From the NCBI RefSeq assembly GCF_032062105.1, contig NW_026939565.1, forward strand, positions 62,001-126,000: DNA of 64,000 nt. The letters run 5' to 3'. A model generated the notes under the pieces. That model was given only the letters and a program-made list of their open reading frames with translations, did not search any database and had not been told where the DNA came from. Shown piece by piece: positions 12,859 to 35,300 of the stretch. The translations under genes were made by a program, and so were the position numbers. The stretch's first letter is position 1. Each line of letters starts with the position of its first letter. The stretch comes from Saccostrea cucullata. Lineage: Eukaryota.

Positions 12859-14304
12859 ATGTCGTCAAAACGTGTATTGACCGCTGTCAGCTTCTTTATT
12901 TTAGTCCCCATGGCTATATCTACTGATAACCAGAGCCATTTTGCTTCAGTTTTATACAAAACATTGTTTGATGATAACTACACATCAGCTATTCATCCGT
13001 ACTGCAGTAAAAATGCTGTTAACGTAACAATAGACATGGGACTTCGAGAAATTGTGGATTTATCAGAAAAATACGAGACCATAAAACTCAAGATCTGGGT
13101 CAGACTTAGCTGGAAGGACTGCAAGCTCACGTGGAATTCTTCCGAATTTGATGGAATTTCCAAACTAGGAGTCCCATACGACAAACTCTGGATCCCAGAT
13201 GTGACTTTTTTTGAAGGTATTGATGATATTGCAAACATGCCTGATATGAAACAATACAGGGCCTTGATAACAAATATAGGCGAAATTCAATATCAGTTTC
13301 CAACAACAGTACACATGACATGCGGAATGAATATTTCCATGTTCCCATACGATCATCAAATGTGTACTCTAACATTTGGTTCATGGATTCATTCAAACAG
13401 CGAAATAGAAATATTCAGTAAATCTGAAAGCGGAGACCTCTCTTCCTTTGTCAACCACCAAGAGTGGGTCGTCGTTAGTCTGAAAGCAACTAAGGTGACA
13501 GAACTATACACTTGCTGTGAAGAACCTTTCTCCAGCATTTCATATAAACTAGTGATAAAACGGAAAGCCACCTTCTACATAATCACAATGATTTTACCTT
13601 TCTTTGCACTCACTATATTATCCATCGCTGGGTTCGTTTTGCCATCTATCTCTGGAGAAAAGATATCATTCCACATGAACATTCTTCTGGCAGTCACAGT
13701 CTTTTTGCTACTGATTCAGGATACGTTACCATCATCATCTGAGTTCTTTCCCAAAATTGGAATTTACTTCCTCAATACCCTTCTGCTCACTTGCTTGTCT
13801 TGTCTGATGTCAGCGATCGTAGTATATCTATTCTACCACGATCTCAGTGGTAGAGAGATGCCCAAATGGGTCAAAAGATTTCTGGTGGATGGACTGGGTC
13901 GACTGATGTTCATCACGCCGGAAACCATCGTACGCTTCAGAGCTCAACAAACCGGGAATACGGATATCACAGATCAGGGGCAGGTGGTAAGAAAATCCGT
14001 GATCCCAGTAGACAAAGTCAAAAAGAGTCGGAAGAGCATAAAGGAAATGGCTCTGAGTGGAATTCAGAACGCTGTTTACGATGGATGGGAGGTCGAAGTA
14101 GGGGAGGTGCGGCGACGGGACGATAACCGCGTCAACTTCATGGAAACCGACAAGTCTGCGTTCTCGGATGCCAGCAAGAAGATGAACGAGTGGGAATTGC
14201 TGGCCTATACACTGGATCGATTCTTCACGGTTTTCTACATCATTGTCATATCTCTGAACACATTTGTTTTTCTTATTGTGCTGAGTCAAAATGATCAACC
14301 CTGA
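12859..14304 (+). CDS. Nicotinic acetylcholine receptor-like alpha-type subunit, single-exon CDS (copy 1)
   Basis: Signal peptide, WIPDV, Cys-loop [19 protein letters not shown], vicinal YTCCEEP, GEK before M2, four TM segments. First ATG is 12859 (the ORF track starts at an upstream TTG, 12838). Confidence 0.95.
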   Translation: MSSKRVLTAVSFFILVPMAISTDNQSHFASVLYKTLFDDNYTSAIHPYCSKNAVNVTIDMGLREIVDLSEKYETIKLKIWVRLSWKDCKLTWNSSEFDGISKLGVPYDKLWIPDVTFFEGIDDIANMPDMKQYRALITNIGEIQYQFPTTVHMTCGMNISMFPYDHQMCTLTFGSWIHSNSEIEIFSKSESGDLSSFVNHQEWVVVSLKATKVTELYTCCEEPFSSISYKLVIKRKATFYIITMILPFFALTILSIAGFVLPSISGEKISFHMNILLAVTVFLLLIQDTLPSSSEFFPKIGIYFLNTLLLTCLSCLMSAIVVYLFYHDLSGREMPKWVKRFLVDGLGRLMFITPETIVRFRAQQTGNTDITDQGQVVRKSVIPVDKVKKSRKSIKEMALSGIQNAVYDGWEVEVGEVRRRDDNRVNFMETDKSAFSDASKKMNEWELLAYTLDRFFTVFYIIVISLNTFVFLIVLSQNDQP

Positions 14305-32365: not shown

Positions 32366-35300
32366 TTATGTGCTGCCACCTTGTGGACGCAGACTGTCTA
32401 AAATGGATCTCAGGATGTTTTCAACTGTAAAAGAAAATAAAACCTAAATTAGAACTATAAATATTCATCAATACAACACTGTAAAATAAATTTTACGATG
32501 GTATGCACATTTTACAGCCATTTTAAATCTCTTCCAGTTTATAAGTCAAATTCACAAAGGCCAGAAAAAATGGATATTTACAAATCATTTTATAGTATTT
32601 CTAATAATTCTTACAAAAAGTTTCATTTTTTAAGACAAGTTTTTTTATACATCTGGGTTGCACAGGAAGAATTTCAATGGATTGTTTATGTCACAGATTA
32701 TTCATATAGATGTAAATATTAGATCTATATACCTTTATTCATAACTCTTCCTTTTTTTAATTGCTTAATTAAATATCACTTCCTAGAGATTATGGATACA
32801 AACATGCATAACCAGAACAGAAATGTTCTACCTTCCTTAAAAATATGATTTTTATCTGGAGCAGTTTACAAGTTAAAAAGATGCAGACAAAAAGGCAATT
32901 AAAATATGAATTAATGGACAAAAAAATTTGACCGTAGGTGACTTTTTTAATAATGAAAAAATGGTGTGGCATTTTGTATATGATGCATTATTCCTAAAAA
33001 AAGGTCGATTTAGTTTGTTAGGTGTTCTATGAAAAGGGAATCATAATAATACAAGCACAGTAAGTCTTTCGAAGGAAGTCAGAGGAGCATATTGCAAAAA
33101 CAAAATTAAAAAAAAAAGAAATATTTCCTGTGTGATTTTTCTTTCAATTCTTATTCTTTTTAACCGCTTACAAAACATTTTTCCCTTCTCTGAAATTTCA
33201 ATCAACAGGAACACAATAAATGAATAAGCTGTTATATATTACATTGTAAAAAGCATTAACGACTTTAATTAACAGGACACATAGGTCCTCATAGCAAAGC
33301 AGTAACAGGAAAGTGTAGATGTCTTTTATAATACATGTACTAATATTTCCTCATTTGGTTAGGTTCCTTTGAAACATCTGTGAAAGAAACATGTGGTCAA
33401 CATTGCTATGGAGCATTTGCATTTTATTTATCTTAACACCTTTGAATGTTTCAAGTGTTAATCAGAACATCTCACTGTTATACAAGACTTTGTTTGGAGG
33501 TGACTACATACCAACTCTTCACCCTCACTGTAGTGAAAATGCCATGAACGTAACAATTGATGTTGGCCTGCGAGAAATCGTGGAATTATCTGAGAAAAAT
33601 GAGGCCATTAAACTCAAAATTTGGGTCAGGCTTATATGGAATGACTGTAACTTTGTATGGAATGCTTCAGAATTTGGTGGAATTTCTGAAATAGGAGTAC
33701 CGTATGACAAACTCTGGATCCCAGATGTGACTTTGTTTGAAGGTATTGATGATATTGCAAACATGCCGGATATGAAACAATACAGGGCCTTGATAACAAA
33801 CACAGGAGAAATTCAGTACCACTTTCCAACAACAGTGCACATGACATGTGGAATGAATATTTCTATGTTCCCATACGATCATCAATTGTGTACTATGACA
33901 TTTGGTTCATGGATACATTCAAACAGGTATATAGAGATGTTCAGCAAATCAGATAATGGGGATCTCACTTCCTTTGTCAACCACCAAGAATGGATAGTGG
34001 TCAGTCTAAAAGCCGCTAAAAGGATCAATGCATACATCTCCCGTAAAGACCCCTTCTCCAGTGTTTCCTACAAACTGGAGATAAAACGCAAGGCCACCTT
34101 CTACATAATCACCATGATTTTGCCTTTCTTTGCCCTTACTATATTATCCATTGCCGGATTCTTTTTGCCATCCATCTCTGGAGAAAAAATAACATTCCAC
34201 ATGAACATTCTTCTGGCAGTCACCGTCTTCTTGCTTGTCATCCAGGATACACTACCGTCATCTTCTGAATTCTTTCCCAAAATAGGAATCTACTTTCTAA
34301 TCACCCTTCTGCTCACCTGTCTGTCCTGTGTGATGTCTGCCATAGTTCTGCACTTGTTCTACCACGACTTCAGTGGTCAACAGGTGCCAGAGTGGGCCAG
34401 TCTAATTCTGATTGAGAAACTTGGTCGCCTGATGGGCATGAAACAACATTATCTTCATCCTGCCCAATCTCATGAAAGTAGTCTTAAAGAAAGAAGCGAG
34501 GAACTGGCTGAAAGAAGCAGTGTGATTCCCACAAACAAAAGCAAAAAGAATAGAAAGAGTATCAAGTCACTCTACTCTCAGGCCTTTGAGAATTCTGTCT
34601 ATGACAATTGGGAAAAGGGTGAAGTTCAGGGACAAGACCAAAAGAGAACTAGTTTCCAGGAAACGGACAAGTCTGCATCCTCTGAAGCCAGGAAGAAACT
34701 GAACGAGTGGGAAATGCTGGCCTATACATTGGATCGATTCTTTACCGTTTTCTATGTTTTTGTTACAACTATTAACACTATTGCTTTCCTTATTGTAATG
34801 AGTGAAAATGATAATTAGCAAATCAGTTAAAACAAGATTTTGGAGGAAATATATTCCCAAGGGGAAGAGAATTGTAATTGTGTCATATATTGCCTTTTTG
34901 TACTATAGAAACAAAATCTTTCTAGTAAATCAAATTTCAGCACAATATACATGTAGGAAAGTAATGCGTCATATTTAAAAGAAATATAAAACAAATCAAA
35001 AAATATTTTCATGTGGACAAAGATTTGTGGTTTGTTAAAAAAAATATAGTTTGAGAATTGCTTTCACGGTTAAATATTTGCTGGGTAAAATTATCTTTGT
35101 AAATTTTACATTTATATTTCATGGTCCCCATACCTTGAAAACAATAAAAATTAAGCCCATTTAAAAAAATCCTTGAAAAAAGTCTTAAAATATTCTTATG
35201 TTTATCAAGTGTTTATTTGATACAATGAATTTATTCTTTGAAATGAGTGTACATGCTGTAGTTGTGCCACTGACGCCATTAAACCTGAATAACAATTCAT

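Follow-up and report, generated by a model that had tools for sequence, protein, structure and literature searches.

A stretch of 64,000 nucleotides (nt) of the Saccostrea cucullata genome (RefSeq assembly GCF_032062105.1, contig NW_026939565.1, positions 62,001 to 126,000 of the forward strand; called 'the window' below, with coordinates counted from its first letter) was found to carry a plus-strand array of four Cys-loop receptor genes, each a single open reading frame (ORF), spaced 6.4-7.4 kb apart and called g1 to g4:

12859-14304, plus strand: g1 (copy 1), alpha-type Cys-loop subunit, 481 amino acids (aa); F118 in loop A, W176 in loop B, Y217-x-C219-C220...F224 in loop C, Glu at M2 -1'
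20223-21668, plus strand: g2 (copy 2), alpha-type, 481 aa; Y118 in loop A, 92% identical to g1
26573-28003, plus strand: g3 (copy 3), alpha-type, 476 aa; Tyr in loop A
33391-34818, plus strand: g4 (copy 4), alpha-derived but lacking the vicinal cysteine pair (CC), 475 aa; W78 in loop D, W174 in loop B, and Y215 and F222 in loop C retained

Both PF02931 and PF02932 were detected in all four ORFs, the C-x13-C Cys-loop was located, and each protein had N-glycosylation sequons and an N-terminus hydrophobic enough to serve as a possible signal peptide. A tblastn search of the 64 kb window (0 Ns) returned no fifth copy and no fragment. Protein identity among the copies was 65-92%, and the ratio of nonsynonymous to synonymous substitution rates (dN/dS) was 0.15-0.28 in all six pairs, a sign that the genes are under constraint and not in decay. 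A first-pass annotation, made from the sequence alone, had described four intact, co-oriented paralogues with particular motifs in loops A to D, and ORFs and loops all matched that description. It had also called the genes intron-free, which holds for the coding sequence (CDS) of all four, while an intron in the 5' untranslated region (UTR) was neither shown nor excluded: AG-ending, pyrimidine-rich stretches lie about 26-30 nt 5' of the ATG in g1, g2 and g4 (read by eye), and none of the RNA splice joints listed fell at g2-g4, where read depth was low.

The S. cucullata protein XP_062610104.1 equals g1 except for one residue, and close relatives were found in S. echinata (three proteins, 78-89% identical to g2) and Ostrea edulis (four proteins, 61-71%). 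A profile made from 34 family members was run against 1.84 billion representative proteins, of which the best 150 matches were kept; 215 core domains (profile matches plus earlier matches) were placed in a FastTree phylogeny, and a 51-row subset was rebuilt with IQ-TREE. The sets of rows counted per clade derive from a search seeded with the family itself and include near-duplicates, and species names in the wider clade were taken from 20 of the 150 kept proteins. In the IQ-TREE phylogeny, g1-g4 and the Saccostrea and Ostrea proteins formed one clade (SH-like approximate likelihood ratio test, SH-aLRT, 100), sister to a Crassostrea/Saccostrea clade (100) and enclosed in a mollusc-wide group (98) with genes from Lottia, Pecten, Mactra, Aplysia, Tegillarca and Pinctada. 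For both extracellular domains (ECDs) tested, the best PDB match by phmmer was the alpha9 ECD 4d01 (140.6 bits versus 129.1 for the next match for g2, and 134.4 versus 107.1 for g4). By sequence, the array is thus part of the published bivalve expansion of intronless, tandemly arranged genes resembling nicotinic acetylcholine receptors (nAChRs), within a mollusc-wide alpha9/alpha10-like clade; the intronless CDS, the tandem paralogues and the tree all bear out the earlier assignment to that expansion.

In Crassostrea gigas, 44 of 132 nAChR genes are intronless, 72 lie in tandem arrays and 33 encode alpha subunits, just 13 of which have a complete principal site, and intron-poor genes include more silent copies (Jiao et al. 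2019, PMC6896357). The arrays described there share with g1-g4 the single-exon CDS, the co-oriented tandem arrangement, lineage-specific stepwise duplication, the mixture of alpha and non-alpha members and degenerate principal-site residues; as far as the available text goes, that study treats C. gigas and the pearl oyster and does not include Saccostrea. Bivalve-enriched Alpha-A10a/b clades are described in the MolluscaGenes preprint, which raises a chemosensory hypothesis in general terms (PMC13174522), and both the array arrangement and the chemosensory hypothesis are therefore already in print for the family. None of the papers listed in the literature search dealt with the array locus or its subfamily, although subscription journals or further supplementary files may hold one. 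Two scans of metagenome contigs gave 10 and 431 pattern matches, none of which was confirmed as encoding the locus.

Pocket residues (K145, D200, Y93, Y190, Y198) and M2 positions were numbered after the cited papers and PDB alignments. Loop C reads YTCCEEPF in g1 and g2, YTCCKEPF in g3 and YISRKDPF in g4, and loop A reads TFFE (g1), TLYE (g2 and g3) and TLFE (g4), while loop B (FGSW, with WIHSN) and loop D (KIWV) are the same in all four copies. Aligned to alpha3 and alpha9, g1-g3 retain W55, W149, Y190 and the vicinal CC of the YxCC motif, which is YISR in g4; W149 and Y190 are kept in all four. The aromatic box is accordingly complete in g1-g3 (Tyr or Phe in loop A, Trp in loop B, Tyr and Phe in loop C, Trp in loop D). 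Departures from the canonical principal site consist of Phe at Y198 in every copy and Phe at Y93 in two (g1 and g4), together with Thr at K145 and Ser at D200 in all four copies and in 13 of 13 rows of the array clade. Neither Phe substitution is peculiar to the array locus: all 19 of 19 oyster subfamily rows, and 32 of 68 in the wider clade, have Phe in place of the second loop-C Tyr, and 13 of those 68 have Phe in loop A; in the sister clade the loop-A aromatic is gone (L, V or I). Two O. edulis proteins (P0006 and P0051) have FAPW in loop B where the array has FGSW, another independent change beside the key Trp.

On the basis of the Tyr/Phe differences, altered ligand sites and a non-canonical ligand had been proposed. 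The first claim is weak: the loop-C Phe goes far back in the subfamily, Y-to-F changes in the pocket are near-neutral for acetylcholine (ACh) in single mutants of the mouse muscle receptor, and the betaine receptor ACR-23 has tyrosine in loop A as well as at each of the two loop-C sites (PMC11377560). Of the second, non-classical pharmacology stands as a possibility, but these substitutions are weak evidence for a new ligand, since they are near-neutral for ACh and the betaine receptor has tyrosines in their place. Loss of the K145/D200 pair, missed in the first-pass annotation, offers a better hint of altered pharmacology. From its residues, the pocket of g1-g3 likely still binds ACh or choline.

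Pore positions are given in the prime-numbering convention for M2. SGEK, with the cation-type Glu at -1' and the GEK ring, was present in all four copies, and neither of the anion motifs PAR and PAK was found; PAK is the motif carried by AChRB anion channels (10.1101/2025.04.02.646353). The array has His at 4', shared by 19 of 19 subfamily rows, and Asn at 6', present in all four copies and in 11 of the 13 array-clade rows, with Thr in most relatives. Alone among the copies, g3 has Asp at 2' (27386-27388; 1 of 68 clade rows) and Asn at 20'. As judged from these residues, the 2' and 20' positions of g3 and the 6' position could alter conductance or calcium permeability. An AlphaFold2 monomer model reached a pLDDT of 68 and a pTM of 0.55, too poor for pocket geometry; the top Foldseek matches listed for it were all nAChRs. 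Taken with the pocket, the pore residues suggest that the products are probably cation channels with a quaternary-ammonium box and lowered affinity or efficacy. Vertebrate alpha9/alpha10 (4d01) shares with the array the Thr at the K145 position, the loop-D W-x-R (Arg at W+2) and the GEK cation ring; the array differs from alpha9 in having Phe for the second loop-C Tyr, Ser for the following Asp (which alpha9 keeps), WIHSN rather than WTYNG in loop B, His at M2 4' and Asn at 6', and a loop A ending in Glu.

The history of the array is recorded in two further features:

12467..14506, plus strand: g1/g2 duplication unit, matching 19804-21870 at 89.7%, with about 400 bp of upstream DNA included
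13285..13425, plus strand: approximate g1-g3 gene-conversion tract (partner about 27005-27145), spanning the Cys-loop and loop B

On this alignment, g1 and g2 arose by a recent duplication of about 2 kb. The g1-g3 tract contained 1 silent difference in 40 comparable codons, compared with 89 in 336 overall (permutation p 0.0022, six pairs tested); the lowest-divergence window was marginal for g1-g4 (p 0.046) and not significant for g1-g2, g2-g3, g2-g4 and g3-g4 (p 0.11-0.61). In the tree of the intracellular loop, g3 grouped with S. echinata XP_061163220.1 (g3 with P0003, 100/99) and g4, a long branch, with Ostrea-type proteins (100/100), while in the ECD tree all Saccostrea copies fell together (99/97). 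The S. echinata proteins P0002 and P0003 have ECDs that are 93% identical, yet the intracellular loop rejects their pairing (approximately unbiased test, p-AU 0.0006). The ECD rejects the pairing of g3 with P0003 (p-AU 0.015) and does not reject g4 with the Ostrea lineage (p-AU 0.17), and in the transmembrane region no grouping was rejected. Twelve such clade checks were made on groups picked post hoc; after correction, the two rejections by the intracellular loop (p-AU 0.0006 and 0.0003) are the only ones that stand. We infer from these comparisons that the ligand domains have been partly homogenised by gene conversion, which would argue for redundancy of g1-g3 more than for a division of roles. 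The term 'gene conversion' has no occurrence in the available main text of PMC6896357, the supplementary alignments of which may hold relatives of the subfamily.

Expression was assessed with three poly(A) libraries, each run being covered to 44-47%, and one contig set, all mapped on positions 15400-35399, an interval that leaves g1 outside; the RNA is bulk, unstranded and of unspecified tissue, and comes from an oyster about 95% identical to the window, so that flanks may fail to map. Depth in coding bins was 0-3.6x, with about 0.07 reads per kilobase per million reads (RPKM) in three flanking bins; values were roughly 0.3-2.2 RPKM at g3, 0.5-1.6 at g4 and 0.2-0.4 at g2, where some reads may stem from g1. 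Reads of g2, g3 and g4 occurred in the same three libraries, with similar levels of g3 and g4 in two of them. The data fit weak expression of g2-g4 together in these bulk samples and have no bearing on cells. Upstream DNA is common to g1 and g2 only, besides a 36-nt match between g2 and g3 and a marginal 22-nt match between g3 and g4. One short element recurs:

12761 and 12779 (12761-12786), 20126 and 20144 (20126-20151), 26505-26512, 33204-33211 and 33304-33311, plus strand: AACAGGAA element

It lies 68-187 nt 5' of all four start codons, where 7 of its 12 matches in the window fall, and recurs although the DNA around it has diverged at g3 and g4; the motif was chosen by eye and post hoc, and the gene copies are not independent. 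The element may be a cis element common to the four genes or a splice acceptor in the UTR; it could also be an ETS/NFAT-like GGAA site.

The explanation we favour, with about even confidence, is that the array grew by stepwise tandem duplication and that its products would be cation-selective pentamers opened, likely at low affinity, by ACh and/or choline. Under it, g1-g3 would be near-redundant alpha subunits that supply the (+) face, whether as homomers or in mixtures where one can stand in for another; g4 would be an accessory that is optional, and the replacement of K145 and D200 by Thr and Ser would reduce affinity or efficacy without a change in the chemical class of the ligand. Several points weigh against this. 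The link to vertebrate alpha9 is left as a basal polytomy by IQ-TREE, with a support of 0.095 for the shared node in FastTree, and the literature search turned up no functional data for any clade member. The Y-to-F data are single mutants in the mouse muscle receptor, a background different from g1-g4; the ECD rejection at p-AU 0.015 fails correction for the 12 clade checks, with groups picked post hoc; and the RNA is shallow (0-3.6x), unstranded and from a ~95%-identical organism, and may include DNA carry-over. DopC retains most nAChR pocket residues and is nevertheless gated by catecholamines (10.1101/2025.10.31.685654), so an intact box is no proof of a cholinergic ligand, and Alvinella Alpo4, which keeps its aromatics and, like g4, has a loop-A Phe and no CC, gave no response to ACh (PMC10338036). 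As these two receptors show, sequence-based ligand inference can fail.

DopC resembles the array in its likeness to alpha9/alpha10, its YXCC motif and its cationic pore (10.1101/2025.10.31.685654), and provides a precedent for a quite improbable alternative, namely that the whole subfamily, marked by loop-C Phe, WIH in loop B and M2 4' His, now responds to some endogenous ligand that is not cholinergic, for instance an amine, with the array as a dosage expansion. Such a switch can leave the box intact, as in DopC; the derived residues do not vary among the members from Ostrea, Saccostrea and Crassostrea (F224 and 4' His, each 19 of 19), and the sister clade has lost loop-A aromaticity. The loop-B Asp before Gly that is critical in DopC, however, is missing in all four copies, which have W-I-H-S-N there, and nothing points to any specific alternative ligand. 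A low-affinity receptor for ACh or choline is the reading favoured for g1-g3. In g4, one segment of the ECD stands out:

34015..34053, plus strand: remodelled loop C of g4, with 9 of the 27 private ECD substitutions inside 12 residues (permutation p 0.0003)

Over the 13 codons of this loop, the proportion of nonsynonymous differences (pN) was 0.40-0.45 and that of synonymous differences (pS) 0.40-0.57, while pN was 0.08-0.09 in the remaining ECD; loop C is the sole ECD segment of g4 with pN close to pS. By these counts the loop is compatible with either release of constraint or positive selection. The dN/dS of g4 against the other copies was 0.22-0.28, and in transmembrane segments 1-3 (TM1-3) its pN was 0.03-0.07 at a pS of 0.5-0.57. 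In the tree g4 nests with the alpha paralogues (SH-aLRT 100), while the Aplysia non-alpha subunits and beetle beta1 lie a long way off, and this nesting, together with the kept Y190, W149 and W55, ruled out a classical beta or non-alpha subunit. A composition of three alpha subunits and one non-alpha subunit had been reported for the array; g4 is indeed formally non-alpha, having no CC, but it is alpha-derived, and the composition was not seen in relatives. All nine array-clade members from outside the window (one from S. cucullata, three from S. echinata, four from O. edulis and one JGI record) keep the CC, although unannotated orthologues of g4 may have been missed, because the g4 protein is itself not in the collection: its exact sequence was not found among 15 billion proteins. 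When longer proteins were screened for g4 within a fused gene model, just one distant annelid protein matched, which is weak evidence of absence. In the wider clade the CC has been lost in 15 of 68 rows, on several separate branches.

A contig from the ~95%-identical oyster spans the loop C of g4; over 309 nt it shows 19 differences and is free of gaps. Were its loop of g2 type, 17 of the 19 would be explained by the loop and the remainder would be improbably clean (Poisson p of about 0.001 or less), for which reason a g4-like loop is probably also present in this relative, about 5% diverged, with the two Cys codons lying outside the displayed alignment. The relative's contigs tile most of g4, with 0, 0 and 7 gaps in three of four. 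Given the contig that spans the loop, an assembly artefact is an unlikely source of it. A compensated frameshift was rejected as its origin, the codons being in register and the changes point substitutions. The S. echinata protein XP_061163224.1 (P0050) has a g4-like segment in loop B, a canonical loop C with the CC and a tail of the g1/g2 type, a mosaic that suggests past exchange with a g4-like gene in the S. echinata lineage.

Decay of g4 into a pseudogene without a role, in an array undergoing birth-and-death turnover, would agree with the absence of its exact protein from the collection, the failure to find an orthologue, its low expression and the commoner occurrence of silent copies among intron-poor genes (PMC6896357); with the ORF intact, dN/dS well below one (0.22-0.28), TM1-3 as constrained as given above and the relative's contigs tiling most of the gene, we consider it very improbable. 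More plausible, but still unlikely, is a model in which each copy forms its own homomer, g1-g3 being cholinergic and g4 an orphan like Alpo4 (PDB 8bx5), its loop C fitted to a different, possibly bulkier ligand. Alpo4 is likewise a lophotrochozoan subunit and forms homopentamers without a CC (PMC10338036), g4 keeps the corresponding Y215, W174, F222 and W78, CC loss is recurrent in separate branches, and the loop-C changes are clustered and mostly non-synonymous. A pN close to pS fits relaxed constraint equally well, and 13 codons are too few to separate the two; Alpo4, moreover, is distant (ECD 96-108 bits, versus 134-141 for alpha9), keeps the second loop-C Tyr that g4 lacks and is phylogenetically isolated (PMC10338036). 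Under the favoured explanation, by comparison, constraint would have been released in the loop C of g4 only, with the (-) face and the pore kept, and for this reason g4 is proposed as an optional accessory subunit that would give a (-) face and, on co-expression, receptors with fewer agonist sites, rather than as an obligatory member of a conserved four-gene kit.

A self-contained heteropentameric receptor kit had been the central proposal of the first-pass annotation. In the form weighed here, the four genes would be co-regulated and their products would assemble into an obligate heteropentamer that detects a non-canonical cue, such as choline, betaine or a molecule from the environment, in the manner of DEG-3/DES-2 or of the cephalopod chemotactile receptors (CRs). 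Co-orientation does not imply co-assembly, arrays being the default in this family (72 of 132 C. gigas genes), and the 3+1 composition is unproven as a kit, given that 9 of 9 close relatives have the CC, although an unannotated orthologue of g4 may have been missed. The choline/betaine-gated C. elegans receptors DEG-3/DES-2 and ACR-23 are, like the array, nAChR derivatives, although of a nematode-specific group; DEG-3/DES-2, a genomically linked heteromer of sensory neurons whose linkage is an operon (title of Treinin 1998, via PMC8747062), is the precedent for a choline/betaine heteromer in sensory endings (PMC8747062). The cephalopod CRs (CRT1, CRB1) are intronless, expanded nAChR derivatives of a mollusc, as the array genes are, but are described as being without signature ligand motifs and with a hydrophobic pocket (PMC13174522, PMC10338036). 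The array differs from them in that g1-g3 have kept the five-aromatic box and g4 most of it, and no CR entry was among the best 60 PDB matches of searches with array sequences.

Consistent with a kit are the selective remodelling of the (+) face of g4 beside a constrained (-) face and pore, the g4-type loop probably common to the relative, the co-occurrence of g3 and g4 reads at similar levels in two of three libraries, the AACAGGAA element 5' of all four genes and the disappearance of the K145/D200 pair throughout the array clade. Set against these are the absence of a CC-less partner in nine close relatives, the recent origin of g1 and g2 by duplication, upstream DNA that beyond short motifs is common to these two only, and Y-to-F changes that are near-neutral for ACh. 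As to the putative sensory role, the available text of a bivalve tentacle transcriptome study (PMC11682238) has 0 mentions of acetylcholine or Cys-loop receptors, and nothing relevant was among the 12 listed of 188 matches from the larval-settlement literature. We therefore regard the obligate kit as unlikely. Similarly improbable is the idea of a heteromer being born, in which gene conversion would maintain compatibility of the ligand and assembly domains among older paralogues, with loss of loop-C constraint in g4 only; g4 would thereby become a beta-like accessory de novo and join g1-g3 in a tunable, low-affinity receptor for choline, betaine or a related quaternary amine in the water, placed in non-neuronal or sensory epithelium.

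The remainder of the window contains the following features:

36886-47212, minus strand: multi-exon gene for a Rel-homology transcription factor, its C-terminal exon rich in Gln; NFAT5 (1imh, E 2e-10, one exon) was the best match
within 45751-45960, 43787-44041, 43388-43774 and 42952-43161, minus strand: Rel-homology domain exons of the NFAT5-like gene
61916-63025, plus strand: transposase ORF with DDE_Tnp_4 and HTH_Tnp_4, apparently intact
5950-6447, minus strand: 165-aa ORF with an FRYIDD motif and no Pfam match
28944-29572 and 47677-49070: repeat arrays with units of roughly 140-160 bp and 172 bp

The NFAT5-like gene lies tail to tail with g4 at a distance of about 2 kb. NFAT5 has a role in osmotic stress; the adjacency may be incidental. 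The FRYIDD motif of the ORF at 5950-6447 is similar to part of a retroelement reverse transcriptase, and DNA related to this ORF was also found at about 18378-18840, between g1 and g2. The repeat array at 28944-29572 had very deep RNA read coverage, originating from elsewhere in the genome.

For a bivalve, the array itself is ordinary. Its use is as a small, clean test set for the question, raised by Jiao et al. (2019) and by the MolluscaGenes preprint, of which ligands are served by the hundred-plus nAChR-like genes of bivalves: with four closely related single-exon subunits, one of them with a naturally remodelled loop C, ligand, ion selectivity and the conversion of an alpha subunit into an accessory one become approachable. 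Were the nascent-heteromer idea to prove true, the array would show that a non-alpha subunit arose recently and independently, and bivalves would have a counterpart to the chemotactile sensing of cephalopods and the DEG-3 chemosensing of nematodes.

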